Shown: in pieces, positions 3,823 to 61,672 of the stretch
Numbering within the stretch: the stretch's first letter is position 1
Layout of the letters: every line of letters begins with the position of its first letter
Assembly (NCBI GenBank): GCA_964532665.1
Contig: CAZHMV010000002.1
Location: forward strand, 84,679-148,678
Direction of reading: 5' to 3'
DNA from: an uncultured Anaerolineales bacterium
GTDB taxonomy: Bacteria; Chloroflexota; Anaerolineae; Epilineales; JAANWY01
Length of the DNA: 64,000 bases
Program-made: the position numbers and the translations under genes
Notes under the pieces: generated by a model
Databases searched by the model: none
Told to the model about the DNA's origin: nothing
Seen by the model: only the letters and a program-made list of their open reading frames with translations

Positions 3823-3835
3823 ACGCTGGTTCATC

Positions 3836-5296: not shown

Positions 5297-6559
5297 ATGT
5301 GGCGTAAACGCATGACGATCATGGTGGCCCTGCTGGGGTTCACTATGCTGGTGGCCAGCCTCAGTTTCACGGCCGGCATCCATGCGGCCGGGTACCCAAC
5401 AAGCACAATCGTCTCACGCATCCCGCTTGCCGACGATATCGTCGGCTTCGTCAACACGCATCCGGCCGCCGGCGCCCCCGATGACCTGGAAAAAGACTTC
5501 GCTGTCTTCTGGGATGTCTGGCACATCGTCGAGAACGACTTCTTCGGCCAGATCGACCGCCAGGCCATGATTCAGGGCGCGATCAAAGGCATGGTCAGTG
5601 CGCTGGACGACCCCTACACCCAGTATGTCAATCCGCAGCAGAACGCGATCATGCGTCAAGATGACAGCGGCGGATTCGAGGGCATCGGGGCCACGGTTGA
5701 CATCATCGATGGCCAACTCACCATCGTTTCTCCGCTCAGGGGCAGCCCGGCTGACCGTGCAGGTCTCAAGGCCGGCGACATCATCCTTGAAGTCGATGGA
5801 CGACCCGTCAAGGGCCTGGACTTGATCGAGGCTGTGTCCCTTGTTCGTGGCCCCAAGGACTCCACCGTCACGCTGACCATCGAGCGTGAAGGCATTGCTG
5901 AGCCGTTCACCGTCTCCATCGTTCGCGCGGCGATTCCGCTGATCACCGTGGACAGCCGGATGCTGACCGACCAGGTCGGTTACCTTGCCATCCACAGCTT
6001 CGGAAGCCACACCGTTGAGGAACTGGACAACAACCTGCGGAAGTTGGAGGAACAGGGCACCCGAGCTCTGATCCTGGACCTGCGAGGCAACCCCGGAGGC
6101 TTCCTCGACGCTGCGGTTGAGACGGTGAGCCGGTTCGTCGAGAGTGGGCCGGCCCTGTGGTGGCAGAACGCAGACGGCACCAGCCGTCCGATTGACGTCA
6201 AGTCACGCCGCACCTTCAAGTGGCCCATGGTCGTGCTGATCGATGGAGGCAGCGCTAGCGCGTCGGAGATCGTGGCCGGCGCATTGCAGGATACGGGCCG
6301 CGCCACCCTCATCGGTGAGCGGAGTTTCGGCAAAGGGTCCGTGCAAAACGTGCATCAACTGCGGGACGGGGGCAGCGTCCGCGTGACGACCGCCCATTGG
6401 CTCACGCCGGACAAACATGAGATCAACGGTGTCGGTCTGGAGCCGGACGTCCACGTCACACGAGACGAATCCCGGCCAGACGTAGACACCCAGTTGAGCT
6501 TCGCCCGCCGGCTGTTGCAAAACCGAATTGCTGTGCCACGCCACATCCCGTTCAAATAG
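5297..6559 (+). CDS. ctpA: S41A carboxy-terminal processing protease with PDZ domain
   Basis: Signal peptide, PDZ (GIGA..PA.RAGLK.GD), LILDLRGNPGG, SASASEIVAGALQD, GKGSVQ. Confidence 0.92.
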   Translation: MWRKRMTIMVALLGFTMLVASLSFTAGIHAAGYPTSTIVSRIPLADDIVGFVNTHPAAGAPDDLEKDFAVFWDVWHIVENDFFGQIDRQAMIQGAIKGMVSALDDPYTQYVNPQQNAIMRQDDSGGFEGIGATVDIIDGQLTIVSPLRGSPADRAGLKAGDIILEVDGRPVKGLDLIEAVSLVRGPKDSTVTLTIEREGIAEPFTVSIVRAAIPLITVDSRMLTDQVGYLAIHSFGSHTVEELDNNLRKLEEQGTRALILDLRGNPGGFLDAAVETVSRFVESGPALWWQNADGTSRPIDVKSRRTFKWPMVVLIDGGSASASEIVAGALQDTGRATLIGERSFGKGSVQNVHQLRDGGSVRVTTAHWLTPDKHEINGVGLEPDVHVTRDESRPDVDTQLSFARRLLQNRIAVPRHIPFK

Positions 6560-11490: not shown

Positions 11491-12348
11491 ATGAGGAACG
11501 TGGCTATAGAAGACCCGGGCCTGGATCTGGAGGCACTGCGCGCCGCTATTCGCGAGGAGTATGAGATGGTGGCACTGACCCCCGATCAAGGCTTTCACTT
11601 CCACACCGGCCGTCCGCTGGCCCGGATGTTGGGCTATCGGACCGAGTGGTTGGCCGCCCTCCCCGAAGGTGCTATCGAGTCCTTCGCCGGCACCGGCAAT
11701 CCCTTCAGCCTGGGAGAATTACGTCCTGGGGAGCGCGTAGTAGATGTCGGCTGCGGCGCCGGCATGGATAGTCTCATCGCCGCCAGAATGGTCGGCCCGG
11801 CCGGTCATGTCATCGGTGTAGACATGACCCCAGAGATGCTGGCCAGTGCCCGCCACAGCGCCCGAGAGACTGAGTTCACGAACGCTGAGTTCCGCGAGGG
11901 CCTGGCTGAGGCCCTACCTGTGCCCGACGGTTGGGCGGATGTGGTCATATCCAACGGCGTGCTGAACCTGATGCCCGATAAGTCGGCCGGCCTGGCGGAG
12001 ATGGCGCGCGTGCTGAAGCCCACTGGCCGCCTGCAGATCGGCGACATCTTGGTGCAGAGGGCCGTTCCCGAAAGTGCCAAACGCAACATCGAGCTGTGGA
12101 CGGGTTGAATTGCCGGCGCTCTGCTTCCAGCAGAGCTCGAGGCCACGGTCGTGGCGGCCGGATTTGTGGATTTCGAGATCACCTGGCGGGCAGATGTCTT
12201 CAGCGGCGCGCCGCAGCAGTCGAGTGCCGCCGCTTATGGTACTCTGGGGATCAACTTCCGCGCCCGCCGGCGCCAGGCGAATGAATTCGCGGCAACCCTT
12301 CGACAAGCTCAGGACGTCGCCCTTGCAAAGTCGGCCTACGCCGGCTGA
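11491..12348 (+). CDS. ArsM-like SAM-dependent methyltransferase, putative selenoprotein (UGA at 12106-12108)
   Basis: VVDVGCGAGMD SAM motif. LWTG-UGA-IAGALL aligns with the ArsM-family W.GC.AGAL motif, and the frame continues 80 codons to TGA 12346-12348. SD ggagagg before ATG 11491. Confidence 0.8.
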
Positions 12349-12450
12349 CTCTCAGTCGGCGTAGGCCGACCCTTCGACAGGCTCAGGACGTCGCCTCGCA
12401 GCCGTAGGCGCGGTTTCCGGTTTCAACCGCCGGCAGCAGGAGGCTGGGTA
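12297..12450. repeat. Composite palindromic element
   Basis: Two ~26-bp direct repeats ccttcgaca(a/g)gctcaggacgtcgcc flank a 19-bp-stem hairpin (gtcggcctacgccggctga-ctc-tcagtcggcgtaggccgac). A GTAG-type REP-like segment follows, ending ggctgggtagtcac. Confidence 0.7.
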
Positions 12451-14449: not shown

Positions 14450-15562
14450 ATGTTCGCTTCGGAGAATCGCTATCTGCGGCCGCTTCCGCCCCTGGTCATC
14501 GGGCTGGTTGTCAGCATTGTCTTGCTGTACATCGGCAACGTAATCGCCAGTGTGCGGAGTTCGGATGCCTTCGGCCTGGCTGCCCAGGCTACCTTCGGTG
14601 CCGGCGGCTGGGCTACCTGGCTGATCATTGCTGCCATCGTTGTGTACGTCATTTACATCTACTTTGCCGACCGGCCTATCTGGTCCGTGGGCACCCGCGA
14701 AGTGGTGTACATGGCCCTGGGCGCGGCTTTGTACGGCCTGTTGTCGTGGGCCTTCAACGCTATCCCGGTCCCTTCGGTGAGCCTGGTGTCACTGCGTCCG
14801 ACGGTGGTCATCCCCATCTTCTTCGGCTATGCCTTTGGCCCGGTGGTGGGCTTTTTCACCGGCTTCGTTGGCAACATTCTGGGCGACGCTCTCACCGGCT
14901 GGGGGGTGTTCCCGGCATGGGACGTGGGCAATGGCCTGATGGGGTTGATCCCCGGTCTGGTCCTGGCCTTCACGCATCGGGATCGGGCGGTGAGAGTCTT
15001 GATCTGGGTGACAGCCGTTGCTCTGCTCATAGCGACTGCACTCCCCATCATCAATCCGAATATCTCTGATCCCTTCAGCGGGGAGCCGGCCAACTTCGGC
15101 AACTGGTGGTGGGTGCCCCTGGTGGGCCTGGTTCTGCTGCTGGTCACGGCTTTCGCCACTCGCTTCTGGCCGGTGCTGGTGGGGCTGTTGGCATTGGGCT
15201 TCCTGGTGCGAGCCGTGCAGAGCCTGGCGAGCCAGGGGCTCAGTGGCGGTGTTATCCTGCTCTTGCTGATGACCGTCGTTATCATCCTGCTCGGTTGGTA
15301 CCTTTTCCGTCGCCGGGAGGCGATTGCCGAGGCCCTGTCCGACACAGACACGAAGGCCATCGTCGTGTGGGGTACACTGGGCATCATCATCGGCATCGGC
15401 TTCGCCGCTCTGGCGGACATCTGGATCAATGGCTATACGTTCTTCACCGCCTTCGTCGGGGAGTTTGTTCCGGCTGCCGGCCCTAACACGCTCTTCGCCA
15501 TTGTGCTGACGCCACTGCTGTATGGTGCCTGGCGGCAGGCGCAGGCGCAGACAGGACGCTAG
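14450..15562 (+). CDS. ECF transporter substrate-binding S component (UPF0397/MtsT-like core, enlarged)
   Basis: VVYMALGAALY...FGPVVGFFTGFVGNILGD core. About twice the usual length, with extra TM segments. Confidence 0.8.
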   Translation: MFASENRYLRPLPPLVIGLVVSIVLLYIGNVIASVRSSDAFGLAAQATFGAGGWATWLIIAAIVVYVIYIYFADRPIWSVGTREVVYMALGAALYGLLSWAFNAIPVPSVSLVSLRPTVVIPIFFGYAFGPVVGFFTGFVGNILGDALTGWGVFPAWDVGNGLMGLIPGLVLAFTHRDRAVRVLIWVTAVALLIATALPIINPNISDPFSGEPANFGNWWWVPLVGLVLLLVTAFATRFWPVLVGLLALGFLVRAVQSLASQGLSGGVILLLLMTVVIILLGWYLFRRREAIAEALSDTDTKAIVVWGTLGIIIGIGFAALADIWINGYTFFTAFVGEFVPAAGPNTLFAIVLTPLLYGAWRQAQAQTGR

Positions 15563-15566
15563 TTTT

Positions 15567-15620
15567 GAGCAGGGGGGCAGGGGAGCGGAGGTGCAGAGGG
15601 GCATCCTCCGCTGCTCCCCG
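15567..15620. repeat. G-rich tandem/inverted hairpin (GG(A/G)GC(A/G)G(G/A) units)
   Basis: ggggagcggagg (15580-15591) can pair with cctccgctgctcccc (15605-15619). Confidence 0.5.
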
Positions 15621-15664
15621 GGCTGCCGGCAAAGTGAGCAGTGGCCTTCGATGATCAACGGCCG

Positions 15665-15786
15665 GTTACTGCTCAGCCACCCTCCCGCAGGTTGCGGTGC
15701 GCAGTGGTTTTGCATCCGAAAAACGGCCTTGAAGCAGCGGTTCTCGGCCAGAGAGGCTTCAAACCTGCGGGAGGGTGAGTAGCTAC
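15665..15786. mobile_element. MITE-like element: perfect 15-bp internal IR and ACTACTCAG-type ends
   Basis: accctcccgcaggtt (15679-15693) and aacctgcgggagggt (15762-15776). Outer ends are gttactgctca and tgagtagctac. Confidence 0.6.
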
Positions 15787-15886
15787 GAGGTAAGCGTTCA
15801 GGGATAACTCAAGGAGCATCCCGAGTAGGCCGAGACGAAGTCGAGGCCGTATCGAGGGGTGCGGCTTACGCTACGAGTTGTAAACG

Positions 15887-16750
15887 ATGCTGGTTACCTG
15901 GAAGTATCGCGAACGAGACACGATCATCCAGCGCCTGGACCCCCGGGCGCGGATTATCTTCATGCTGTGTGCTTTCTTCAGCATCATTCAGTTCTGGGAC
16001 CTGCGCTTCCTGTTGGGATTTCTGGTTCTGGCTCTGGCCCAGATGGCGCTGGCACGGTTGGGATGGCGGGAAACGCGACGGTTCTGGCTGTTCATCACCG
16101 TGATCGCCTTTGCCCTGTCACTCATGACGGCACTGACCGGCCGGGGTGGAGTGGGGGTGTATGCTCAGGAGCATACCCTCTGGCGGGGTGAGTTCCATCT
16201 GCTGGGGGCGACCTTCGCTCTGGCCGTCAGCGCCGAACGCCTGACGTTCATGGTGGCGCAAATTGTGCGCATCTTTTCCTTCGCCGCGCTGGCCGTGGTC
16301 ATTCCCTACACCATTCACCCGGCTCGTTACGGGATCACCTTCCGCCGGCTGGGGGTGCCCGACAAGTTCGCCTTCGCCATGGACCTGGCCTTCCGCTTCA
16401 TCCCATCCCTGGGCCAGGATTTCCAGATGACCCTAGACGCCCAGCGGGCGCGGGGCTACGAGCTGGAGCGCATCGGCGGTGGGATCATCCGGCAGATTCG
16501 CAACATGGCTCCCCTGCTGATTCCGGTCACCATCGGCGCTATTGTGCGGGGTGAGGAGGTCATCGATGCCATGGACCTGCGCGCGTTCGGCACCGGACCG
16601 CGTACCTGGCTGGAGGAGTTGCACTACACCCCTCGGGACTACGCCCTGACCGTGTTCAGCGTCCTGTTGCTCCTGGGATCGACGGTACTCCACCTGTTAG
16701 GCTACGGTGGCTTCTGGGTGCCGGCGTGGCTGTTGGCCCTGGCCCGGTGA
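15887..16750 (+). CDS. ecfT: ECF transporter transmembrane T component
   Basis: LDPRARI start, LAFRFIP, AQRARG and AMDLRAF coupling motifs. Confidence 0.92.
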   Translation: MLVTWKYRERDTIIQRLDPRARIIFMLCAFFSIIQFWDLRFLLGFLVLALAQMALARLGWRETRRFWLFITVIAFALSLMTALTGRGGVGVYAQEHTLWRGEFHLLGATFALAVSAERLTFMVAQIVRIFSFAALAVVIPYTIHPARYGITFRRLGVPDKFAFAMDLAFRFIPSLGQDFQMTLDAQRARGYELERIGGGIIRQIRNMAPLLIPVTIGAIVRGEEVIDAMDLRAFGTGPRTWLEELHYTPRDYALTVFSVLLLLGSTVLHLLGYGGFWVPAWLLALAR

Positions 16751-16800
16751 CACTTCTGAGCAGTCGCCATGCCCCTGCGGGGCACCATGAAGCATGAAAA

Positions 16801-16853
16801 TAGCTAGATGGCTAGATGGCTCAAAGCCATCCAGCTATCCAGCTATCCAGCTA
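16801..16853. repeat. Tandem 8-mer inverted hairpin (TAGATGGC / GC(T/C)ATCCA)
   Basis: Left arm tagctagatggctagatggct, right arm agccatccagctatccagctatccagcta. A second copy lies at 61231-61310. Confidence 0.75.
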
Positions 16854-16879
16854 TTCTCAGACGAGATGGGATGATCCGT

Positions 16880-16908
16880 TTGACAAATCGGTGTTGGTTT
16901 GGTATACT
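16880..16908 (+). promoter_or_regulatory. Sigma70 promoter of the lys operon (TTGACA-17-TATACT)
   Basis: Consensus -35, 5/6 -10, 17-nt spacer. Confidence 0.8.
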
Positions 16909-16918
16909 ATCGCCCGCA

Positions 16919-16996
16919 ATGAATATGTCGGTTGTTTTGGGCGCTTTTGACGCCAAGCAGGGCAAGAAGGAGAAGCCGGACGACTCGTCTGGTTAG
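16919..16996 (+). CDS. Lysine-rich leader peptide MNMSVVLGAFDAKQGKKEKPDDSSG
   Basis: 25-aa ORF starting 10 nt below the -10 box, with four AAG codons in a 7-codon stretch, upstream of antiterminator/terminator pairings. Confidence 0.7.
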   Translation: MNMSVVLGAFDAKQGKKEKPDDSSG

Positions 16997-17072
16997 CTGT
17001 GCTTGCCTGAAAACGCCCACAACGCGTAGCCAACGCCGGCCACCAGACGAGGTGAGCCGGCGGTTTTTGTTT
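16976..17072 (+). terminator. Attenuator: antiterminator (16984-16993 with 17042-17051) competing with an intrinsic terminator (17032-17072)
   Basis: CTCGTCTGGT is the perfect complement of ACCAGACGAG. Terminator aacgccggc-cacc-agacga-ggtg-a-gccggcggtt followed by a U-rich tract. Confidence 0.75.
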
Positions 17073-17104
17073 CATGCCGAAAGTGCAAAAGGAGGTTCTC
17101 GGAA

Positions 17105-17275
17105 ATGGCAACTGCAACGTGTCCCGAATGCGCCGGTGAGGTTCTCTTCGGCTCTGACATCGTGGTCGGCGAGATTGCCCAGTGCCCCGACTGCGGTGTG
17201 GAGCTGGAGGTTCTGAGCGTCGATCCGCTCGAAGTCGATCTGGCACCGGAAGTCGAAGAGGATTGGGGAGAGTAG
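17105..17275 (+). CDS. lysW: Amino-group carrier protein LysW
   Basis: Missed by the ORF track (56 aa). MATATCPECAGEV...CPDCGVELEV...EVEEDWGE: two CPxC motifs and the invariant C-terminal EDWGE. SD aggagg. Confidence 0.97.
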   Translation: MATATCPECAGEVLFGSDIVVGEIAQCPDCGVELEVLSVDPLEVDLAPEVEEDWGE

Positions 17276-17276
17276 T

Positions 17277-17344
17277 ACGTGAAACGTAAAGCGTGAAGAT
17301 CGGTGCAGTCCCCGTTCCTCACGTTTCACGTTTTACGTTTCACG
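17277..17344. repeat. Tandem 7-mer inverted hairpin (ACGT(G/A)AA / TT(T/C)ACGT)
   Basis: Between lysW and lysX. A related copy lies at 43542-43624. Confidence 0.75.
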
Positions 17345-17385
17345 CCTTCTCAAACCTCATTCTGGTCTTGAAAAGGAGCGTGTCC

Positions 17386-18330
17386 ATGCGCATAGGTATT
17401 CTACATTCTAGAATCCGGCTCGAAGAGAAGCTGATCCTGCAGGAATTGGATCGGCGCGGTCTCAACTACGACATGATCGATGTGCGCCGGATCGTGTTCA
17501 ATCTCCACGAGAACGGGTGGGCCGATTATGACGTGATTCTGGAGCGCTGCGTCAGCCACTCGCGGGCCTTGTCGGCGCTGCGCATCCTGGATGCCTGGGG
17601 CGTGCCCACGGTCAACCCCTTCCAGGTGGGCGAGGTCTGTGGCGACAAGCTGAATACATCCCTGGCGCTGATCCAGGCCGGCGTGCCCACCCCCCGCGTC
17701 GAGATCGCCTTTACCCCCGAATCCGCTCTGGAAGCCATCGAGCGGTTGGGCTACCCCGTTGTCCTGAAGCCGGCGGTCGGCTCGTGGGGCCGGCTGTTGG
17801 CCCGCGTCAACGACCGCGACGCCGCCGAAGCCCTGCTGGAGCACAAGTCCACCCTGGGATCGTACCACCACTCCATCTACTACATCCAGGACTACGTTGA
17901 TAAGCCCGGCCGCGACATCCGCAGCTTTGTCGTCGGCGATGAGACGATCTGCGCCATCCTGCGGGAGTCGCAGCACTGGATCACCAACACCGCCCGAGGG
18001 GGTCGCGCCAGCAACTGTCCGGTGACACCCGAAATCGATGCACTTTCTCGGGCTGCTGCTCGGGCCGTGGGAGGCGGCATTGTGGCCGTGGACATCCTGG
18101 AGAGTCCCGACGGGGAGTTGCTGGTGAACGAAGTTAACTACACCATGGAATTCCGCAACAGCATCGAGCCGACGGGGGTGGACATTCCGGCGAAGATTGT
18201 GGATTATGTGGTGGCTGTGGGGGAGGGGCGACAGGAGTTCGGAGAGCGTCGGGAACTCGGGGGAACTCGGGGGAACTCGGGGGAACTGGCGGTGCCGGCG
18301 CAGGGTGTGGAGGAGAGCGGGCGTGGTTAG
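17386..18330 (+). CDS. lysX: LysW-alpha-aminoadipate ligase (ATP-grasp)
   Basis: [36 protein letters not shown]. Start ATG 17386 with SD aaggag. C-terminal tail [12 protein letters not shown] is repeat-encoded. Confidence 0.95.
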
Positions 18331-19348
18331 GGCGAGCATTGTGGGGGGGTCGGGGTATGCCGGCGGTGAGCTGTTGCGGTTGCTGCTGAGACACCCCGAG
18401 GTGGAAGTGCAGCAGGTGACGTCGGAGCGGTACGCCGGTCGCTACGTCCACAGTGTGCACCCCAACCTGCGGGACCAGACGCGGCTGCAGTTCAGCCGAC
18501 TGGAACAGCTTGAACCCTGCGATCTGCTCTTCCTGGCGCTGCCCCACGGTCAGGCAGCCCGGCAAATCGACCACTTCGCCACGCTCGCCGACCGCATCAT
18601 CGACCTGTCGGCCGATTTTCGGCTGCGCGATGCCGGCGCGTACCAGCGCTGGTACGGTGCGGAGCACCCCGCCCCGGCATGGCTCGACCGGTTCGTGTAC
18701 GGGCTGCCCGAAGTGTACCGCGGCGAGCTTCGCGACGCCCACTACGCCAGCGGCGTCGGTTGCAACGCCACGGCGGTCAACCTGGCCCTGTGGCCCCTGG
18801 CCCGCGCGGGTCTCATCGAGTGCGTGGTAGCTGAGGTGAAGGTCGGTTCGTCCGAGGCCGGCAACAAGCACAGCCTGGCCTCCCACCACCCGGAGCGCAG
18901 CGGCGCGGTCCGCTCCTTCGCCCCCACCGGCCACCGCCATCAGGCCGAGATGCAGCAGGTGTTGGGCGATTTCGAGCTGCACTTTTCGGCCACGGCTGTC
19001 GAGTTGGTGCGCGGCGTCCTGTGTACGGCTCACTGTTTCCTGCGGGAAGACTTGCAGGAACGCGATCTCTGGAAGCTTTACCGCGGGGCATACAACGACG
19101 AGCCCTTCATCCGCATTGTCAAGGATCGAACCGGCGTGTACCGCTACCCGGAGCCCAAGGTCCTGGCCGGCACCAATTTCTGCGACGTGGGTTTCGAGCG
19201 CGATCCCGACTCGAACCGCGTCGTGGTCATCAGCGCGCTGGACAACCTGGTGAAGGGCGCGGCCGGCAGTGCTGTCCAGTCAATGAATGTGATGATGGGG
19301 TGGGGGGAGACGACGGGGTTGGAGTTTGTGGGGCTGCATCCGGTGTAA
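18323..19348 (+). CDS. lysY: LysW-aminoadipyl-phosphate reductase (ArgC family)
   Basis: [25 protein letters not shown] catalytic Cys, [12 protein letters not shown] start overlaps the lysX end. Confidence 0.93.
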
Positions 19349-19403
19349 TGCGTCTTACGTCTTACGTCTTACGCAGTACGCAAGACGTAAGACGCAAGAC
19401 GCA
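19349..19403. repeat. Tandem 7-mer inverted hairpin (CGTCTTA / (T/C)AAGACG)
   Basis: Fills most of the lysY-lysZ spacer. Confidence 0.8.
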
Positions 19404-19420
19404 ATGGAGGAAATAGGGAC

Positions 19421-20236
19421 ATGATCGTTGTGAAGGTTGGCGGCAGCGCAGGCATCAATCTCGACGCTGTGTGCGCTGATGTCGCATCTCTCGTGCAGGC
19501 GGGTCAGCGACTCATCCTGGTCCACGGCGGGTCACACCAGACGAATGAGGTGGCCGAGAAGTTGGGGCATCCACCCCGGTTTGTGACGTCGCCGTCGGGC
19601 TACACCAGCCGGCGCACCGACCGGCGCACCCTGGAGATTTTCGAGATGGTCTACTGCGGCCAGATCAACAAGGGTGTCGTCGAGCGGCTGCAGCAGCACG
19701 GTGTGAACGCCGTCGGGCTGTCGGGCATCGACGGGCGCATCTGGGAGGGCCGGCGCAAGAAGGCAATCCGCATCGTGGAAAACGGCAAGACGTTGATCGT
19801 GCGCGATGACTACACGGGGGTCGTCGAGCGAGTCAACACTGGATTGCTCCAGACCCTGCTCGATGCCGGCTACCTGCCGGTGCTGACGCCGCCGGCCATC
19901 AGCTTCGAGGGCGAGGCCATCAACGTGGACGGCGACCGCGCCGCTGGCGCCACCGCCATCGCATTCGGGGCCGAGGCTTTGCTTCTGCTTTCCAACGTAC
20001 CAGGCCTGCTGCGCAACTTCCCCGACGAGAGCAGCCTGATTCGCCACATCTCCGGCGACGAGATCGAAGCTGCGGCCAAACACGCCGAAGGCCGCATGCG
20101 CATGAAACTCCTGGGCGCCCGCGAAGCGCTGGCCGGCGGCGTGGGGCGGGTGATCCTGGGGGATGCGCGGGTGGAGCAGCCGGTGAGACGGGCGTTGGCG
20201 GGGGAGGGAACAGTTATTGGAACTCAGGGGAACTGA
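19421..20236 (+). CDS. lysZ: LysW-aminoadipate kinase (ArgB family)
   Basis: IVVKVGGS, LVHGGS, INVDGDRAA, GRMRMKL. Confidence 0.93.
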   Translation: MIVVKVGGSAGINLDAVCADVASLVQAGQRLILVHGGSHQTNEVAEKLGHPPRFVTSPSGYTSRRTDRRTLEIFEMVYCGQINKGVVERLQQHGVNAVGLSGIDGRIWEGRRKKAIRIVENGKTLIVRDDYTGVVERVNTGLLQTLLDAGYLPVLTPPAISFEGEAINVDGDRAAGATAIAFGAEALLLLSNVPGLLRNFPDESSLIRHISGDEIEAAAKHAEGRMRMKLLGAREALAGGVGRVILGDARVEQPVRRALAGEGTVIGTQGN

Positions 20237-20317
20237 GAGGAACTCAAGGGAACTTGGCCAACAATGACTGTGGGCTTCTCTCAAGTTCTGCTGAGTTCCC
20301 CCGAGTTCCTCTGAGTT
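20218..20317. repeat. GGAACTC-family tandem ~10-mer inverted hairpin
   Basis: ggaactcaggggaactgagaggaactcaagggaact ... gagttccccgagttcctctgagtt. Overlaps the lysZ stop. Confidence 0.75.
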
Positions 20318-20337
20318 GCCCTTTTTCGGGATCTGCA

Positions 20338-21507
20338 ATGAAACCAAACATGGACGTGATCGAATTGGAACGGCAGTTTACCAGCGGTGTGTATCCCAAA
20401 CGGGACGTCGCCATCGTGCGGGGTGAGGGTACGCGGGTTTGGGACGCTGAGGGACAGGAGTATATCGACTGTGTGGGCGGGCATGGGGTTGCGAATCTCG
20501 GGCACTGCCATCCGAAGGTTGTCGAGGCCATCGCGCAGCAGGCGCGGACGCTGATCACATGCCCCGAGGTGTTCTACAACGACCGGCGGGCGGAGCTGCT
20601 GAGCCGGCTGTCGGCCCGCCTGCCCGACGGCTTGAACCGCATTTTCCTGTGCAACTCGGGTGCTGAGGCCGTCGAGGGGGCCATCAAGTTTGCGCGTCTG
20701 AGCACGGGCCGGCCCGGCATCGTCGCCACCATGCGCGGCTTTCACGGTCGCACTCTGGGCGCCCTGTCGGCAACGTGGGAGCGCAAGTATCGGGAGCCGT
20801 TCGAGCCGTTGGTGCCGGCCTTCTCTCACGTTCCGTTTAACAACCTGGACCGGATGGCGCAAGCTGTGAGCGACGACACAGCAGCGGTCCTGGTCGAAAT
20901 CGTCCAGGGCGAGGGGGGGGTGCGACCCGGGTCAGCAGAGTACTTCCAGGGGCTGCGGAAGTTGTGCGACGAACGGGGCGTGTTGCTCATCGTCGATGAG
21001 GTGCAGACCGGCTTCGGGCGAACCGGTCGCTGGTTTGCGGTAGAGCATGCCGGCATCATCCCCGACCTGATCTGTCTGGGCAAGGCAATTGCCGGCGGAG
21101 TGCCCATGGGGGCCGTGGCCATCGGGCCGGCGGTGGCCGAGCTGCCGGCCGGAACCCACGGTTCGACCTTCGGTGGCAATCCGCTGGCCTGCGCTGCCGC
21201 CGTCGCCGCCCTGGAAGCCTACGCGCGCGAAAGCCTGATCCAGCGCTCGGCCGAGATGGGGAGGTATCTGCTCGACCGGCTGCAGACCATCGAGTCGCCG
21301 TTGATCCGTGAGGTGCGGGGCCTGGGGCTGATGGTCGGCATCGAGCTCAAGACGCGAGTGACGCCGGTGCTGCAAGGCTTGATGGAGCGGGGGGTGCTGG
21401 CGCTGCCGGCGGGTCCAACGGTGCTGCGGCTGTTGCCGCCGCTGGTGATCAGCCGTGAGGAGATCGAGACGGTGATTCGCGCTATTGATGCCACCCTGCG
21501 TCAGTGA
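20338..21507 (+). CDS. lysJ: LysW-aminoadipate semialdehyde aminotransferase (class III PLP)
   Basis: CNSGAEAVEGAIK, GFHGRT, DEVQTGFGRTG, GKAIAGG, HGSTFGGNP. Start at ATG 20338 or 20350. Confidence 0.92.
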   Translation: MKPNMDVIELERQFTSGVYPKRDVAIVRGEGTRVWDAEGQEYIDCVGGHGVANLGHCHPKVVEAIAQQARTLITCPEVFYNDRRAELLSRLSARLPDGLNRIFLCNSGAEAVEGAIKFARLSTGRPGIVATMRGFHGRTLGALSATWERKYREPFEPLVPAFSHVPFNNLDRMAQAVSDDTAAVLVEIVQGEGGVRPGSAEYFQGLRKLCDERGVLLIVDEVQTGFGRTGRWFAVEHAGIIPDLICLGKAIAGGVPMGAVAIGPAVAELPAGTHGSTFGGNPLACAAAVAALEAYARESLIQRSAEMGRYLLDRLQTIESPLIREVRGLGLMVGIELKTRVTPVLQGLMERGVLALPAGPTVLRLLPPLVISREEIETVIRAIDATLRQ

Positions 21508-21594
21508 TCAGTGATCAGTAATCAGTATTCAGATTCTCATTACTGACCACTGATCACTGTTTACTGTTGACTGATCACTGATCACTGATCACTG
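21501..21594. repeat. Tandem 7-mer inverted hairpin (TCAGTGA / TCACTGA)
   Basis: Fills the lysJ-lysK spacer. The first units supply the lysJ stop codon. Confidence 0.8.
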
Positions 21595-21615
21595 AGACTT
21601 AGAACTGAGGACCAA

Positions 21616-22674
21616 ATGGATGCCGTTGAGCTTCTGCGACGGATGTTGGAAATCGAGAGCCTGTCGGGCCAGGAGGGCGAGTTGGCCGAGTTCCTTGTGG
21701 AGCGGATGGCCGGCTGGGGGTTTGATGCGCGCGTGGACGAGGCTGGCAATGCTGTCGGCGTGGTGGGCGATGGCCCCAACGAGATTGTGCTGCTGGGCCA
21801 TATCGACACGGTGCCGGGGCGGATTCCGGTTCGGATCGAGGGTGAGCGACTGTACGGACGGGGAGCGGTGGATGCGAAGGGACCGATGGCGGCCTTCGTT
21901 GTCGCAACCGCGCAAGCCGGCCCGCTGCCGGGCACGCGGGTCATCGTTGTTGGCGCCACCGAAGAGGAGGCGGCTACCTCGAAGGGGGCGCGCTTCGCCG
22001 TTGAGCGATATCGGCCTGCGTTCTGCGTCATCGGCGAGCCCAGCGGCTGGGATAGCATCACGCTGGGCTACAAGGGCCGGCTGCTTATCAACTACCGGCT
22101 GGAACGCTCCATGGGCCACACCGCCGGCCCCGAGGGGGGCGTGGCCGAGGAGGCGGTGGCCTGGTGGCAGGCGCTCAAGGCCAGGGCCGAAGCCTTCAAT
22201 GCTGAGCACAACAGCGCCTTCAGCCAACTGTTGCCATCCCTGCGAAACATTGTCACCCACAGCGATGGGCTGACCAATTCAGTTGAAGCCACTGTCGGGA
22301 TTCGGCTGCCACTCGACTATGACGCCAGCGCACTGGAGCGCGCTGCTCGTGAGCTGGCCGGCGACGCCCGGGTCCGCTGCTACAGCTACGAGCCGGCCTT
22401 TCGCGCCTCGAAGAACACGCCGCTGGTGCGCGCCTTTCTGCGAGCCATCCGCGCCGAAGGTGGCCGGCCCACATTCAAGTTGAAGACCGGTACGTCGGAC
22501 ATGAACGTCGTCGGACCGGTGTGGAACTGCCCCATCGTCGCCTACGGTCCGGGCGATTCCAGCCTGGACCACACGCCGAATGAGTACATTGAGATTGCGG
22601 AGTACCTGCGGGGGATTGAGGTACTTCAGCGAGCGTTGGATTTGTTGGTCGAACAGGAACTCGGAGGAACATAG
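21616..22674 (+). CDS. lysK: LysW-lysine hydrolase (M20 family)
   Basis: LLGHIDTVPG, GRGAVDAKG, ATEEE, GTSDMN, YGPGDSSLDHTPNE. Confidence 0.93.
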   Translation: MDAVELLRRMLEIESLSGQEGELAEFLVERMAGWGFDARVDEAGNAVGVVGDGPNEIVLLGHIDTVPGRIPVRIEGERLYGRGAVDAKGPMAAFVVATAQAGPLPGTRVIVVGATEEEAATSKGARFAVERYRPAFCVIGEPSGWDSITLGYKGRLLINYRLERSMGHTAGPEGGVAEEAVAWWQALKARAEAFNAEHNSAFSQLLPSLRNIVTHSDGLTNSVEATVGIRLPLDYDASALERAARELAGDARVRCYSYEPAFRASKNTPLVRAFLRAIRAEGGRPTFKLKTGTSDMNVVGPVWNCPIVAYGPGDSSLDHTPNEYIEIAEYLRGIEVLQRALDLLVEQELGGT

Positions 22675-22738
22675 GGGAACTCAGGGAAGCCAGGGGATCT
22701 TGAGTTCCCCCGAGTTCCCCTGAAATCCTCCGAGTTCC
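22655..22738. repeat. GGAACTC-family inverted hairpin
   Basis: ggaactcggaggaacataggggaactcaggg ... gagttcccccgagttcccc. Overlaps the lysK end. Confidence 0.7.
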
Positions 22739-22773
22739 CGCTGCGCAAGTTCTCCCATGTAAAGGAGCTAACC

Positions 22774-23922
22774 ATGAGTCTAGAGAACTTCTCAATCATC
22801 GAGTCTACCCTGCGCGAGGGTGAGCAATTCGTAAATGCTTTCTTCACGACGGAGCAGAAGATCCAGATTGCCCGGTTGCTGGACGAGTTCGGGGTCGAGT
22901 ATCTGGAGCTGACATCGCCGCTGGCGTCGCCCCAGAGTCGGGAGGACTGCACGACCATCGCCGGCCTGGGTCTGCGCGCCAGGATTCTCACCCACACGCG
23001 GTGTCACCTGAAGGATGCCCAGATCGCCGTCGAGACCGGCGTGGATGGCGTGGATGTGGTCATCGGTACCTCATCATACCTGCGGGAATTCAGCCACGGC
23101 AAGAGCATTGACCAGATCGTCGATCTGGCGCGCGACGTGGTGGCATACCTCCAGGAACAGGGCGTCATCGTGCGCTTCAGCACCGAGGACAGCCTGCGCA
23201 GCAATCCCGAGGACCTTTTCCGCGTCTACGAGGCAGTGGACGAACTGGGCGTGGATCGGGTGGGGGTTGCCGACACAGTGGGCGTCGGCACGCCGCGCCA
23301 GATCTACGCTCTGGTGAGCGAGCTGAGGCAGCGGGTGAAGTGCGACATCGAGTTCCACGGGCACAACGACTCCGGCTGTGCCATCGCCAACAGTTATGCC
23401 GCACTGGAGGCCGGCGCGACTCACATCGACACCAGCGTGCTCGGCATCGGCGAGCGAAATGGCATCACGCCGCTGGGGGGCCTGGTCGCCCGGCTCTTTG
23501 CCACCGACCCGAAGCTGGTGGAGAAGTACAACCTGCCCGTCATCCGCGATCTCGACCGGCTGGTGGCCGATTTGGTTGACGTAGACATCCCGTTCAACAA
23601 CTACATCACGGGGTTTTCGGCTTTCACGCACAAGGCCGGCATCCACGCCAAAGCCGTCCTGAACCACCCCTCGACCTACGAGATTCTAAAGCCCGAGGCC
23701 TTCGGGCTGACACGCTACATCCACATCGCCCACCGGCTAACCGGCTGGAACGCTGTTCGCCACCGCGCTGAGCAGCTCGGTCTGGAGCTGGACGACGATC
23801 AGGTGAAGCATCTGACGGCTCACATTAAAGCCCTGGCCGACGAGCGCGCATTGACCCTGGACGACGTGGATGCGCTGCTCCACCACTGGGCAGATGGCAA
23901 AGCAGAAGAGCAAGGGACCTGA
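22774..23922 (+). CDS. hcs: Homocitrate synthase
   Basis: [41 protein letters not shown] (DRE-TIM fold, Thermus/fungal HCS-like). Confidence 0.92.
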
Positions 23923-23933: not shown

Positions 23934-24380
23934 CTAGCTGAGCCCTTCTTCGATCAATGTCCGGACAGCCTGCACGAACTCGGCCGGTGTCTCGATTCTC
24001 AGTCCACTCTCCTCTGCTACTTGAACTGGCTTGATGAAGTCTTTGACATCCAGGGTCAGAAAACGGTCGGGGGCGGCTGTCACTGCTGCTGCAAGGATGG
24101 GGGCGTCCTTGGGATCGATCACAGATTCCCAGTGAACGACCTCCTCGCTGCTCGGATCGGGGACAATCTCGGGACCAATGGCTGCCATTAACTCTGCGAA
24201 GACGGGGAGAGCTGCCGGCAATTTCTTGCGCAAGTTGCGCTCAGTTTCGTCAAGGACCTGTCGGGAGACAACCAGCCGGTACAAACCAATCTCGGCCATG
24301 GTCAGCACGGCGCGACTGGCACCGGTGCGTGAGCCTGCACCGGCTACTAGAACGGTGGCGTCAGCGAAGACCCTGGTCAC
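23934..24380 (-). CDS. PIN-domain putative toxin (VapC-like)
   Basis: RVFADATVL, ETERNL, DPKDAPILAAA, LTLDVKDF acidic PIN residues. Confidence 0.85.
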   Translation of the reverse strand: MTRVFADATVLVAGAGSRTGASRAVLTMAEIGLYRLVVSRQVLDETERNLRKKLPAALPVFAELMAAIGPEIVPDPSSEEVVHWESVIDPKDAPILAAAVTAAPDRFLTLDVKDFIKPVQVAEESGLRIETPAEFVQAVRTLIEEGLS

Positions 24381-24699
24381 GGGTTGTCTTCTCCTGACGG
24401 GCCCACCGTTCCTGATAAATTGCCGCTCGTTCTTCCTTCAACCCAATCAGCAAGTCAGCCAGAGTTACGCCTTCCGCTTCCATCAACTCCACAATCCGAT
24501 CTGCCAGCAGAGGTACAACGGGCCGTTTCGGGGTAAGCAGCAGGGTCGAACCCACCTGGACAAGCGCTAGCGTATCGCCATCCCTCATATTCAATTGCTT
24601 GCGCACTTCTTGTGGCACCGTGATCTGGCCTCGCTGCCGCAGACGGACGTCATACGTTTTCAGAGAGGTAACTTCGCCCGACACTTGCGCAGTAGTCAT
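24361..24699 (-). CDS. AbrB/MazE-type antitoxin
   Basis: VRLRQRGQITVPQEVRKQLNMRDGD swapped-hairpin motif. Overlaps the PIN gene start. Confidence 0.85.
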   Translation of the reverse strand: MTTAQVSGEVTSLKTYDVRLRQRGQITVPQEVRKQLNMRDGDTLALVQVGSTLLLTPKRPVVPLLADRIVELMEAEGVTLADLLIGLKEERAAIYQERWARQEKTTRDQGLR

Positions 24700-29584: not shown

Positions 29585-29622
29585 CCGTGCAGCGAAGCCG
29601 TGCCTCAAACGGACAGTTTTCT

Positions 29623-29693
29623 CCCACGGATAGAAAGAAACACGGATAGAATCTAAGTTTCTCTGTTTTCATCCGTGTTTCTTTCTATCCGTG
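29623..29693. repeat. CACGGAT/ATCCGTG inverted tandem hairpin after add (possible terminator)
   Basis: ccacggatagaaagaaacacggat ... atccgtgtttctttctatccgtg is a near-perfect long stem. Confidence 0.7.
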
Positions 29694-29937
29694 AGGAAAA
29701 CCTGTTTGGGATGCTCCGTGGGCTATCCCTGGACGCCTGCCCGGCTGCTGCTTGAGCGATGGTAAGGCAGCGACGCCCCCACCAGTCCTATTCCATGGGA
29801 CCAAACTTGGACCTGTTTTTGACTTGCGTGTGCCCAACTTTGTGGTATACTTGAGACAAACAAACGCCCGTTAGTCTGCGGCCCATTCGAGCAACGTTTC
29901 GGCAGTTGAAACTGCACCAACGTCTGCGAAGCATGTC

Positions 29938-43554: not shown

Positions 43555-43624
43555 AACGTGAAACGTGAAGACTGGTCAGAGGGAGAAGCCATCACGTTTC
43601 ACGTTTTACGTTTCACGTTTCGCG
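43542..43624. repeat. Tandem 7-mer inverted hairpin (ACGTGAA family)
   Basis: acgtgaaacataaaacgtgaaacgtgaa ... tcacgtttcacgttttacgtttcacgtttcgcg. The right arm is nearly identical to that at 17319-17344. Confidence 0.8.
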
Positions 43625-61210: not shown

Positions 61211-61230
61211 TCCAGGGTTTCTCCCGGAGA

Positions 61231-61310
61231 TAGATGGCTACTTGGCTAGATGGCTAGTTGGCTGAGTGATTAGTGCTAGCCATCCAGCCATCCAGCCACC
61301 TAGCCATCCA
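61231..61310. repeat. Tandem 8-mer inverted hairpin (TAG(A/T)TGGC / GCCATCCA)
   Basis: Same family as 16801-16853. Confidence 0.75.
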
Positions 61311-61327
61311 TAATGGTGTGCCGCCGC

Positions 61328-61597: not shown

Positions 61598-61672
61598 TGC
61601 CCCCAAGGGGATTCGAACCCCTGTCTCCACCTTGAAAGGGTGATGTCCTGGGCCAGGCTAGACGATGGGGGC
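61598..61672 (-). tRNA. trnE: tRNA-Glu(UUC), CCA not encoded
   Basis: GCCCCCA/TGGGGGC acceptor stem, TCACC-CTTTCAA-GGTGG anticodon arm, GGTTCGAATCC T-arm. Confidence 0.95.

Follow-up and report, generated by a model that had tools for sequence, protein, structure and literature searches.

Tandem-unit hairpins of a lys operon as probable ORF-less relatives of four-helix-bundle cassettes

Hairpins whose arms are arrays of short tandem units stand between the genes of a lys operon in the 64-kb stretch of DNA analyzed here (the window). With a probability of about 0.72, we interpret them as solo (MITE-like) representatives, devoid of an ORF, of a palindromic-cassette family that would spread selfishly and whose transcripts would pass through an RNase III step. 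ORF-less cassettes may account for the abundance of 7-base tandem repeats between bacterial genes.

Paired tandem arrays in the window

Tandem Repeats Finder (TRF) and an inverted-repeat search located seven tandem arrays between 16.8 and 22.7 kb, with units of 7, 8 or 10 nt, and recovered every element listed in a preliminary description of this DNA. The reverse complement follows the array in six of the seven cases, giving stems of 20-39 bp with energies of -28 to -58 kcal/mol (RNA fold); the loop and unit count are individual to each copy. The gene names given earlier are right, as lysW, lysX, lysY, lysZ, lysK and hcs pass NCBIfam cut-offs and LysJ passes the argD-subfamily cut-off. The region reads as follows (copies are given as left / right arm, and hairpins carry no strand):

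16800-16856 (repeat searches, 16803-16854), hairpin with 8-nt units, GCTAGATG / AGCTATCC (also given as TAGATGGC / GCCATCYA; TRF, RNA fold), copies 2.4 / 3.8, 20 pairs, -28.4 kcal/mol; an ECF-T (CbiQ-like) stop lies 50 nt before it and the lys promoter -35 24 nt after it
16880-16908, plus strand, lys operon promoter, TTGACA-17-TATACT with TG extension (11/12 consensus matches, promoter scan)
16919-17072, plus strand, Lys-rich leader ORF (16919-16996) and intrinsic terminator (~17034-17072; sequence, fold)
17105-17275, plus strand, lysW (TIGR01206, 57.5 bits vs cut-off 53.2), TAG stop 1 nt upstream of the ACGTGAA hairpin
17276-17344, ACGTGAA / TTCACGT hairpin, lysW/lysX junction (inverted-repeat search, fold), arms 95% complementary, 25 pairs, -32.8 kcal/mol; lysX ATG 41 nt downstream
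17386-18330, plus strand, lysX (TIGR02144, 352.8 bits, residues 3-278 of 314)
18251-18287, plus strand, single-arm array, GGGAACTCGG x3.7 (TRF, 100% matches)
18323-19348, plus strand, lysY (ArgC family; TIGR01850, 381 bits), GTG start overlapping the lysX stop, TAA stop abutting the CGTCTTA hairpin
19349-19404, CGTCTTA / TAAGACG hairpin, lysY/lysZ junction (inverted-repeat search, fold), copies 3.3 / 3.9, 25-nt arms, 92% complementary, -34.7 kcal/mol; lysZ ATG 16 nt downstream
19421-20236, plus strand, lysZ (NF010659, 449.5 bits)
20219-20322, hairpin with 10-nt units, GGAACTCAGG / CTGAGTTCC, lysZ/lysJ junction (TRF, inverted-repeat search, fold), copies 3.6 / 3.2, 39 pairs, -55.3 kcal/mol, followed by T5; lysJ ATG 15 nt downstream
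20338-21507, plus strand, lysJ (NF042418, 510 bits, below the equivalog cut-off; TIGR00707, 456 bits, above cut-off), TGA stop within the first unit of the TCAGTGA hairpin
21501-21595, TCAGTGA / TCACTGA hairpin, lysJ/lysK junction (TRF, inverted-repeat search, fold), copies 4.6 / 7.7, -44.5 kcal/mol; lysK ATG 20 nt downstream
21616-22674, plus strand, lysK (NF003367, 456 bits), final codons and TAG stop falling within the left arm of the 10-nt-unit hairpin that follows
22656-22739, 10-nt GGGGAACTCR-family hairpin (unit tabulated as GGAACTCRGG), lysK/hcs junction (TRF, inverted-repeat search, fold), copies 4.3 / 3.8, -58.0 kcal/mol; hcs ATG 34 nt downstream
22774-23922, plus strand, homocitrate synthase (hcs), last gene of the cluster (TIGR02146, 479.7 bits)

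The leader ORF and terminator are also conserved in a relative, L001 (92% LysZ identity; dS versus the window 0.70-0.85), and probably form a lysine attenuator separate from the repeat elements. The preliminary description had read the lysZ/lysJ and lysK/hcs units as 9 nt and 7 nt long; they are instead one 10-nt family, GGGGAACTCR. The array that it placed at the lysX/lysY junction sits within the lysX 3' end, in frame, and codes for part of a C-terminal tail of ~36 residues by which LysX extends past the family model. No complementary arm for this array is visible in the sequence downstream; single-arm forms are also found on phage contigs L088 and L092. The final four codons of lysZ and its TGA (..VIG TQGN-stop) come from the left arm of the adjoining hairpin, where relatives end in ..GTVIG-stop.

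Four further elements lie outside the lys region:

29613-29705, hairpin of two ~16-nt units containing CACGGAT (inverted-repeat search, fold), 35-nt arms, 89% complementary, -50.4 kcal/mol, 28 nt past an adenosine deaminase stop (Pfam A_deaminase)
42577-42725, largest copy of the 10-mer-family hairpin, 8.5 + 4.4 units (TRF, inverted-repeat search), read through in frame without a stop in ORF 41803-43554 (fused ECF ATPase), as the linker joining two ABC_tran domains
43542-43621, second ACGTGAA hairpin, ecfA/ecfT junction (TRF, inverted-repeat search, fold), copies 4.0 / 4.3, -41.9 kcal/mol; ecfA TAA stop inside the left arm, ecfT ATG 36 nt downstream
61230-61311, second TAGATGGC-type hairpin (TRF, inverted-repeat search, fold), minus-strand fold -53.6 kcal/mol; it lies 20 nt upstream of a methyltransferase ORF encoded on the minus strand, with a tRNA gene (61598-61672) farther upstream

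These comprise the CACGGAT type noted earlier near 29623 and the recurrences noted at 42577, 43542 and 61231, with the qualification that the 42577 copy is embedded in frame within an ORF. Homologues of the fused ATPase at 63-75% identity have a shorter and degenerate linker. Six elements have a stop codon inside them or no more than 1 nt upstream, always that of an upstream, co-directional gene, and two are translated in frame (the LysX tail and the linker of the double ABC ATPase). The window holds six unit types: two, ACGTGAA (two copies) and GGGGAACTCR (five), are tied to four-helix-bundle cassettes described below, and four have no linked passenger gene.

This density is far from random. 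A strict TRF-plus-pairing test found six hairpins in the window versus none in each of 100 dinucleotide-preserving shuffles, and arrays of period 6-12 numbered 43 versus 10.6 +/- 3.3 in the shuffles. A stop triplet is present in 23 of 42 units versus ~10 expected, and the period is not a multiple of 3 in 39 of the 42. It is scarcely credible that the hairpins are an assembly or sequencing artefact. The repeats do break assemblies, as shown by two short contigs that terminate precisely at hairpins (17347 and 18242), but window 7082-27275 is matched at 99.9-100% by contigs assembled from three JGI metagenomes and one Logan run, each a separate sample; the four independent assemblies agree base for base over all seven lys elements, with zero differences in hairpin interiors, and another genome holds orthologous copies.

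Four-helix-bundle cassettes with matching arms

In other genomes (L017, L019, L039, L053 and L060), arms of tandem units enclose four-helix-bundle genes, and these cassettes occupy the same junctions as ORF-less hairpins. The passengers belong to the TIGR02436/PF05635 (23S-rRNA-IVS/Avd) family; an NCBIfam scan of two of them, those of L017 and L019, gave TIGR02436 scores of 59 and 81 bits (cut-off 24), and the other three were recognized by jackhmmer seeded with those two. The L053 arm is (ACGTGAA)x8, and ACGTGAA-armed cassettes occur in L053 and L226-L231. A metagenome scan with the 10-mer yielded more than 120 stretches, among which GGGGAACTCR arrays flank four-helix-bundle genes in L097, L103 and L114. 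Cassettes bearing the window's own arm units thus confirm the link to four-helix-bundle genes that the preliminary description had made, whereas the GxxExxY genes named with them gave one distant match only, without such arms. As it had stated, no four-helix-bundle gene was found in the 64-kb window.

The arm unit tracks the protein clade. L053-type proteins (62-70% identity) have ACGTGAA-type arms at 6/6 independent insertion sites, and L097-type proteins (48-89% identity) have GGAACT-type arms at 4/4 independent sites with both flanks visible; a fifth L097-type site, L114, is cut by a contig end and carries the array on its single visible flank. Host operons all differ across both clades' sites, and the unit is conserved with the clade though synonymous sites are saturated. 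L017 is near the ACGTGAA clade (55-61% identity) yet has TAATAAG arms, and a plasmid-borne four-helix-bundle gene of Pseudanabaena (L234) lacks arms of this kind. Each of the 16 cassettes examined runs in the same direction as the host gene upstream of it, and in ACGTGAA and GGGGAACTCR cassettes the host stop codon lies in or beside the left arm. The loop end of window hairpin 43542-43621, gCCATCACGTT, resembles the junction that follows the stop in cassettes L226 and L227. Neither transposase, integrase nor reverse transcriptase was found beside any cassette, and no consistent target-site duplication was found.

Conservation of the unit despite synonymous saturation points to sequence-specific recognition, and each unit could be a candidate site for a nucleoid-associated or four-helix-bundle protein, with paired arrays organizing DNA or regulating transcription. 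Complementarity is equally good on both strands, and the same architecture appears in the paired 'global regulator binding sites' of Geobacter metallireducens, interpreted as IHF/HU sites (Aklujkar et al. 2009; PMC2700814). As the passages of that paper on these sites describe them, 3-5 tandem units of 7-9 nt are paired with an opposite-strand array at variable distance, at dozens of intergenic and intragenic places per genome; the unit sequences differ from ours, and those passages report no link to four-helix-bundle genes or stop codons. We nevertheless consider such a DNA-level role unlikely, since most copies lie within transcription units and not at promoters, and uniform co-orientation of cassettes with host transcription is unexpected for a symmetric DNA site.

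Empty and retained junctions in relatives

Comparing the lys operon across sister genomes for presence or absence, as the preliminary description had suggested, revealed insertion polymorphism among relatives. At 80 lysZ loci of other genomes, an array lies within 150 nt upstream in 19 and within 200 nt downstream in 15, and the unit differs at almost every array-bearing locus. Unoccupied junctions in relatives are ATGA overlaps or ~25-nt spacers. At three junctions, orthologous hairpins persist between the window and L001 over dS ~0.75 (L001 coordinates, no strand):

3729-3919, orthologue of the lysZ/lysJ hairpin, expanded
5096-5202, orthologue of the lysJ/lysK hairpin, CAGTGAA units
6254-6350, orthologue of the lysK/hcs hairpin

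Arm complementarity in the shared hairpins is ~70-94% despite divergence. The weakest stem, that of L001 lysJ/lysK, keeps ~5 of 7 Watson-Crick positions per unit, and most of its other mismatches can be read as plus-strand G.U pairs. A unit change between the window and L001, CTCAG to CTAAG, is accompanied by the matching change in the other arm.

The preliminary description had offered two explanations. The first, mobile elements at stop-codon junctions seen as empty cassettes, is favored because relatives' junctions are empty and tightly coupled where the window has hairpins and because ACGTGAA and GGGGAACTCR form the arms of four-helix-bundle cassettes elsewhere, although movement itself was not observed. 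The second, co-opted RNA signals, may hold in addition. Host-selected RNA elements could uncouple cistron translation, protect 3' ends after processing or set enzyme stoichiometry, with likeness to cassette arms secondary, which would be compatible with a selfish origin. We entertain this tentatively: three orthologous junctions keep their hairpins with compensated changes, all lys junctions are occupied versus few elsewhere in the window, and downstream of each hairpin there is still a ribosome-binding site and a gap of 15-41 nt to the next start codon. REP-type hairpins in E. coli stabilize upstream mRNA. However, overlapping or 25-nt junctions suffice in most relatives, these units also turn up in unrelated operons, within protein linkers and flanking a passenger gene, and a U-tract is present at one hairpin only. 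The one test run, for a sense-strand G.U bias, was negative; the sense fold was weaker than the antisense in 7 of 10, and thus gave no signature of selection on RNA alone.

We regard as very improbable an origin in place without mobility, in which replication slippage in the stop region was followed by a template switch that copied the array in reverse, with units arising convergently. Some units include the last codons and stop of the host gene itself, such as CAG TGA at the lysJ end of both the window and L001 and AGTGAGC at the lysZ end in L026 and L030, each copy's loop is unique and orthologues differ in unit number, all as this origin would predict. It is at odds with identical units at several unrelated sites of one genome, with the same units in distant genomes and metagenomes and with arms that travel with a particular protein clade, and is strongly disfavored for the ACGTGAA and 10-mer families.

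A cassette model and its closest known systems

Under our preferred reading, that the hairpins are solo cassettes, a full element consists of (unit)n, a ribosome-binding site, a small four-helix-bundle gene (TIGR02436/PF05635) and (reverse-complement unit)n. It lies co-directionally within a host operon, directly where a host cistron ends, and each four-helix-bundle clade has its own arm unit. The left arm usually carries stop triplets, which a period of 7, 8 or 10 nt places in all three frames, so that the arm ends the host gene; the next cistron retains its own ribosome-binding site past the right arm. Solo copies plausibly arose by loss of the passenger gene, as the left-arm array flanks it on either side in some full copies, and recombination between these direct arrays would leave exactly arm-loop-arm. 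We infer that the elements spread as selfish DNA. Counting against this, identical copies in four assemblies and three orthologous ones fit prolonged vertical inheritance and perhaps a role in the host. Placement at stop codons fits active targeting and survival at harmless sites alike.

Among the closest known systems is the 23S rRNA IVS of Coxiella burnetii and Leptospira. In Coxiella, a 428-nt IVS has inverted repeats on either side of an S23p (four-helix-bundle) ORF, and the 28-bp stem into which they pair is cut by RNase III (PMC4990558). IVSs share with the cassettes a passenger of the same family between terminal inverted repeats, a long stem in transcribed RNA, the lack of a transposase, a site where RNA cutting is harmless and a sporadic distribution that suggests horizontal spread (PMC4990558). 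Unlike IVSs, the cassettes are situated in mRNA rather than rRNA helices, namely at the borders of cistrons and within protein linkers, their arms are arrays of 7-10-nt tandem units, and the window copies have no ORF, whether lost or never present. By analogy with these ORF-bearing homologues, near-perfect stems of 20-57 bp would be cut by RNase III once transcribed, and the lys polycistron would undergo processing at nearly every junction; we propose that such processing is why these positions tolerate elements.

A survey of prokaryotes found heptamers to be more common than any other intergenic tandem repeat (bioRxiv 10.1101/309039), and the function of intergenic heptamers, which include the TAACTGA repeats of Beggiatoaceae (PMC4679880), has been declared unknown. 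Those repeats and the cyanobacterial STRR resemble the window arrays in heptamer period, stop-containing units, location at gene ends and starts and many copies per genome, but are mostly of single orientation, whereas here the reverse complement follows the array. Paired tandem-unit sites and intergenic heptamers have already been noted, without explanation, and we found no paper tying them to these cassettes.

MITEs and REP/BIME elements are likewise short ORF-less palindromes scattered between operon genes and kin to longer ORF-bearing copies. Here, by contrast, neither a known transposase nor a RAYT is encoded by the ORF-bearing relatives, a GTAG/CGTC head and conserved internal sequence are lacking, no consistent target duplication was found, the arms are tandem units and, unlike in ordinary MITEs, loop and unit count are particular to each copy. 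Target regions of diversity-generating retroelements (DGRs) lie at gene 3' ends, beside a hairpin. Avd, a DGR accessory protein, has a homologous four-helix-bundle fold and family (PMC10053308). Unlike in DGRs, there is no reverse transcriptase or template repeat near any cassette seen, and we take the Avd relation as a lead towards a mobility mechanism. Rickettsia palindromic elements, which have no known sequence relation to those described here, can sit in frame in protein-coding genes and be translated, as do window copies 42577-42725 and 18251-18287 and the in-frame translated copies also observed in L133 and L151.

Tandem-unit hairpins in the lysine operon

All of the elements listed in the preliminary description, runs of short tandem units that in all but one case are followed by their reverse complement, were recovered with Tandem Repeats Finder (TRF) and an inverted-repeat search. 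Four more hairpins lie outside the lysine operon, three of them with units that recur, as had been claimed. Seven of the 11 window elements fall in the 6-kb aminoadipate/LysW lysine-biosynthesis (lys) operon, whose genes were identified by NCBIfam.

Genes (NCBIfam) and elements (hairpins, TRF and inverted-repeat search; one-arm array, TRF) of the lys operon, with the four hairpins outside it
16803-16854, hairpin
16880-16908, strong sigma-70-type lys promoter
17105-17275, lysW
17276-17344, hairpin
17386-18330, lysX
18251-18287, one-arm array
18323-19348, lysY
19349-19404, hairpin
19421-20236, lysZ
20219-20322, hairpin
20338-21507, lysJ
21501-21595, hairpin
21616-22674, lysK
22656-22739, hairpin
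22774-23922, homocitrate synthase (hcs)
29613-29705, hairpin
42577-42725, hairpin
43542-43621, hairpin
61230-61311, hairpin

By TRF, the unit is 7, 8 or 10 nt long, apart from 29613 with about 16 nt, and is repeated 2.4-8.5 times per arm; the opposite arm is the reverse complement. An array is paired with the same array on the other strand in 10 of 11 elements, across spacers of 5-27 nt, and the RNA folds have stems of 20-57 pairs at -28 to -92 kcal/mol. Nine of the 11 elements lie between genes, three unit families recur within the window, and each copy has its own loop and its own unit count. A stop triplet occurs in 23 of 42 units, against about 10 expected, and the period is not divisible by 3 in 39 of 42, so that a stop-bearing array ends translation in all frames. 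Such all-frame stops fit elements obliged to terminate the host gene at the landing site.

The elements had been said to supply or overlap the upstream stop codon, and the stops of lysZ, lysJ, lysK and ecfA indeed lie inside the left arm, with the element encoding the last codons; the LysZ C terminus reads ..VIG|TQGN*, its final residues coming from the element. The lysW stop lies 1 nt upstream of its hairpin, the lysY stop adjoins the next one, and 15-41 nt, ribosome-binding site included, separate the right arm from the next start codon. The array assigned to the lysX/Y junction is present but misplaced, as it is translated within a LysX tail of about 36 residues past the family model. The largest copy, 42577-42725, is translated in frame within a fused ECF ATPase, where it links the two ATPase domains. 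Homologues at 63-75% identity have a shorter, degenerate linker, consistent with a putative insertion that expanded in the window genome; comparison with the paralogue and homologues yielded no clean empty site.

Regarding chance, a strict test (two TRF arrays of equal period with reverse-complement consensus units, at most 120 nt apart) was passed by 6 hairpins of the window and by none in any of 100 dinucleotide-preserving shuffles, and arrays of period 6-12 numbered 43 compared to 10.6 +/- 3.3 in shuffles. As for assembly artefact, contigs from four independent assemblies (three JGI metagenomes and one Logan run), found via the exact LysW protein, match window 7082-27275 at 99.9-100%, with the hairpins free of differences. 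Hairpins form the exact endpoints of two short contigs, as expected of multi-copy repeats. Elsewhere, at 12295-12395, two 26-nt direct repeats (CCCTTCGACARGCTCAGGACGTCGCC) surround a palindrome with a 14-bp stem; contig L081 lacks 23 nt there, the sole such indel among the four assemblies, and contig L083 has a single-base difference at 12886.

Ahead of lysW, a Lys-rich leader ORF of 25 codons (MNMSVVLGAFDAKQGKKEKPDDSSG) is followed by an intrinsic terminator (GCCGGCC..GGCCGGC and T5), and the end of the ORF is able to pair with the left arm of the terminator. This region (16880-17072) is likely a lysine attenuator; it matched no Rfam family. At 15569-15640, 7 nt past the stop of an ECF S-component gene, lies a degenerate GCAGRGG x4 array; it has a partial complement and is possibly a twelfth element in decay, and a separate 20-nt inverted repeat (CACCCTCCCGCAGGTT ... 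AACCTGCGGGAGGGTG) with arms about 85 nt apart lies at 15660-15785. Neither matched Rfam. Two heptamer arrays at 585-655 (TGACGAA x2.3 and GGTCGAT x2.7), unrelated and not mutually complementary, sit at the 3' end of a minus-strand glycosyltransferase ORF (552-1952). A PIN-domain/MazE-like toxin-antitoxin pair (23934-24699, minus strand; Pfam labels via the identical contig L082) is convergent on homocitrate synthase.

Lysine-operon junctions in related genomes

Scanning a genome collection with LysZ yielded 80 loci, allowing the comparison of the lys operon among sister genomes that the preliminary description had proposed. An array lies at most 150 nt upstream of lysZ in 19 of these loci and at most 200 nt downstream in 15, nearly always with a period of 7 nt and with a different unit at almost each locus. 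Where arrays are absent, adjacent genes overlap by ATGA or stand about 25 nt apart, and because unoccupied junctions are this tight, the hairpins represent insertions into junctions that were originally tight. Near the boundaries of lysZ, arrays are about 8 times as dense as on average over the locus; since arrays avoid coding sequence, this is no proof of a preference for lys over other junctions.

The closest locus (L001, from an Anaerolineae MAG with a LysZ 92% identical) carries hairpins at three orthologous junctions (lysZ/J, lysJ/K and lysK/hcs), with flanks equal to those in the window. Unit counts differ between the orthologues (for example, about 9 versus 4), and the 10-mer unit differs by one base (GGAACTAAGG versus GGAACTCAGG), matched in the opposite arm; the L001 form is common to both of its 10-mer loci, and all five window loci carry the other form. 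L001 and the window genome have a synonymous divergence of 0.70-0.85, at which unconstrained stems are expected to have decayed, so the shared stems have been either maintained or regenerated. A second reading offered at the outset was that the hairpins are co-opted RNA signals. Mismatches compatible with G.U pairing were not enriched on the sense strand, so it is apparently at the DNA level, or through regeneration, that complementarity persists, and the antisense fold was more stable in 7 of 10 hairpins, leaving RNA-only selection unsupported. The lys leader and terminator are also conserved in L001 (2580-2720), where lysZ follows them directly (2580-2935) without lysW, lysX and lysY between, a different operon arrangement.

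Four-helix-bundle genes between matching arms

Similar arms had been said to flank four-helix-bundle (4HB) genes in other genomes, and this association was borne out: at several loci of the LysZ scan the arms lie 360-520 nt apart with a small 4HB gene between them, an arrangement that we term a cassette. The L017 and L019 genes scored 59 and 81 bits against TIGR02436 (cut-off 24), and those of L039, L053 and L060 were identified by jackhmmer seeded with these two. As had been stated, the window itself holds no 4HB gene detectable by jackhmmer. The parallel link to GxxExxY genes was not confirmed; an approximate probe sequence led to one distant ORF (L166) flanked by plain hairpins with no tandem-unit arms.

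Cassettes and their host junctions (L numbers are loci from other genomes or metagenomes; a vertical separation of host genes is written with a slash)
L017, lysZ/J, TAATAAG arms
L019 and L039, lysX/Y, AAAAATG-type arms
L053, lysZ/J, ACGTGAA x8
L060, TCAATGA arms
L097-type, sites with both flanks visible: the L097/L103 site; aldo-keto reductase / metallophosphoesterase; MarR / ABC exporter; livG / livF
L053-type: lysZ / lysJ; PDH E1 / E2; hypothetical / SpoIIE; after an MFS gene; after an SSF gene; histidine kinase / response regulator

Querying metagenomes with two adjacent copies of the window 10-mer (GGGGAACTCR family) returned more than 120 stretches, mostly ORF-less hairpins (solos), with some in frame within ORFs (L133, L151). 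None of these loci overlapped the window, and they therefore hold no strain-level variation for the source organism. GGGGAACTCR arrays flank 4HB genes in L097, L103 and L114. Among L097-L216, 10-mer palindromes are of two kinds, one opening with the purine-rich arm, like those of the window, and one opening with the pyrimidine-rich arm and having a 7-10-nt loop (e.g. L100, L104, L120).

Homologues of the L097-type and L053-type proteins form 210 and 4,630 clusters (the latter at 90% identity), with PF05635 present in 120 of the 120 clusters listed for each, and we fetched contigs of these homologues for flank inspection. In the L097-type clade (identities 48-89%), (GGAACT..)n lies upstream and (..AGTTCC)n downstream at all four independent sites with both flanks visible; a fifth, L114, is cut by a contig end and has an array on its single visible flank. 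The L053-type clade (62-70% identity) has (ACGTGAA)n ... (TCACGTT)n at 6 of 6 sites, one on a contig labelled Pseudomonadota. L017 is an exception, 55-61% identical to the L053-type clade yet carrying TAATAAG arms. In 16 of 16 cases the cassette runs in the same direction as the upstream host gene, and the host stop codon lies within the left arm or adjoins it. Because units are conserved where synonymous sites are saturated, arms and gene constitute one element with sequence-specific ends.

Cassettes with arm units of the window are L053, L097, L103 and L226-L231. The left-arm array occurs on both sides of the gene in the full copies L097, L103 and L060, and recombination between these direct arrays would produce an arm-loop-arm solo. 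Window loop 43570-43591 ends gCCATCACGTT, equal to the junction after the stop codon in cassettes L226 and L227 ('TGA CCATCACGTT'), a match that suggests such an origin. The first reading in the preliminary description, mobile elements at stop-codon junctions seen as empty cassettes, thus gains support both from insertion into tight junctions and from the 4HB genes that ACGTGAA and GGGGAACTCR arms carry elsewhere. Based on these sequence comparisons, the window hairpins with those two units are best read as gene-less copies of the two cassette families; the other four unit types share the architecture, with no passenger identified.

At L053 10506-11264, the 4HB ORF of the ACGTGAA cassette has no stop and continues in frame via a short right arm into lysJ, making possible either a fusion protein or an internal lysJ start. 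A NUDIX hydrolase gene in the same lys cluster (L053 2942-3566) lies between AAGGAGT arrays and their reverse complement, and arms may enclose passengers besides 4HB genes.

A PDB sequence search with the passenger protein gave 2GSC (XCC0516), functionally uncharacterised, as its sole match. The passenger family is homologous to Avd, a nucleic-acid-binding partner of DGR reverse transcriptases (PMC10053308), which offers a lead, and only that, to the mechanism of mobility. On a Picosynechococcus PCC 7003 plasmid (L233 1300-1850, NZ_CP016476), cas10/cmr2 and cmr3 are separated by a gene annotated 'four helix bundle protein', whose arms are (GGAGATAA)n / (TTATCTCC)n. Genes termed 23S_rRNA_IVP inside cas operons, between cmr2 and cmr3, have been interpreted as CRISPR-associated (PMC3936711); our observations suggest that this association reflects cassette insertion.

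Known repeat classes and a candidate mobile cassette

Heptamer arrays between genes have been described in cyanobacteria and Beggiatoaceae (PMC4679880), and in a survey of 7,006 genomes no intergenic tandem repeat was commoner than heptamers, for whose function it gave 'no clear clue' (bioRxiv 10.1101/309039). With such STRR-type arrays the window elements share at least two tandem copies of a 6-10-nt unit (periods 7, 8 and 10), intergenic sites near starts and stops, and occurrence in several copies. The Geobacter metallireducens genome paper describes a paired tandem-repeat architecture termed 'global regulator binding sites' (PMC2700814), and this paired opposite-strand arrangement is shared by 10 of 11 window elements.

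The nearest characterised relative is the Coxiella 23S rRNA intervening sequence (IVS), a 428-nt element with an S23p (4HB) ORF between inverted repeats that form a 28-bp stem cut mid-stem by RNase III, considered selfish and horizontally acquired (PMC4990558). The window elements share inverted-repeat stems of at least about 20 bp, but the ORF between the arms is present only in relatives with the same arm units, so the window copies are classed as ORF-less derivatives and not as full members. The IVS resides in a 23S rRNA helix; the copies described here are all located within protein-coding genes or between them, and the window is without rRNA. Terminal inverted repeats are shared with MITEs, whereas transposase parentage is not: the ORF-bearing relatives encode only the 4HB protein, and their neighbours are ordinary host genes. 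No consistent target-site duplication was found in the window flanks or between occupied and empty lysZ junctions, which include no close-relative empty site, and no recombinase or reverse transcriptase is present near the elements. Element units are missing the REP/BIME head (GTAG or CGTC, 20-40-nt palindrome). At gathering score, Rfam matched tRNA alone across the window and no element family, and under permissive settings the stretch 15500-17400 gave nothing beyond chance hits of miRNA hairpins to its palindromes. Intrinsic terminators were also considered; a terminator scan flagged none of the hairpins, and T5 follows 20219-20322 only.

We class the elements as a variant of types already known (IVS-like, MITE-like, STRR-like). 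A search of papers, with subscription journals covered in part, found no link of tandem-unit arms to 4HB cassettes; neither the anatomy that unites the elements nor the correspondence between arm unit and protein clade seems to have been described before. We tentatively propose, at roughly three chances in ten for the reading as a whole, that 4HB (Avd/S23p-family) genes with tandem-heptamer inverted arms form a large, so far unrecognised class of mobile cassette. Such cassettes would lack a transposase and would insert co-directionally, the target sites being cistron 3' ends of transcribed operons, rRNA loops and protein linkers. They would use a so far undescribed mechanism, which might proceed through RNA or a hairpin, the Avd-like protein recognising cognate arm units. 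Gene-less remnants would lie behind much of the unexplained prokaryote-wide excess of intergenic 7-nt tandem repeats, and the same class would also explain 23S rRNA intervening sequences and the 'association' of 23S_rRNA_IVP with cas operons.

If correct, this proposal would give intergenic heptamers a testable origin, uniting cyanobacterial STRRs, Beggiatoa TAACTGA repeats, Geobacter paired sites and 23S rRNA intervening sequences, and would take in the very large 'four helix bundle protein' family without assigned function. Arms alter host C termini and stop codons (LysZ, LysJ, LysK, EcfA and the LysX tail), can fuse or extend ORFs, as in the ATPase linker and the L053 ORF entering lysJ, disrupt short-read assemblies, and can give 4HB genes a false appearance of belonging to the operon of insertion. 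By analogy with the IVS, the transcribed 20-57-bp stems would be RNase III substrates, and the lys transcript would be cut at nearly all junctions; with a long stem at each, we predict heavy processing.

Viral contigs carry ACGTGAA arrays at phage gene junctions as well, mostly single arms without a 4HB gene and thus uninformative on mobility. In three IMG/VR contigs (L088 3800-5260, L092 4250-5080, L096 760-1620), successive structural-gene junctions hold different single-arm heptamer arrays (ACGTGAA, GCAGAAA, CATCCAA, ATTGAAT), placed after the stop codon and ahead of the next ribosome-binding site.
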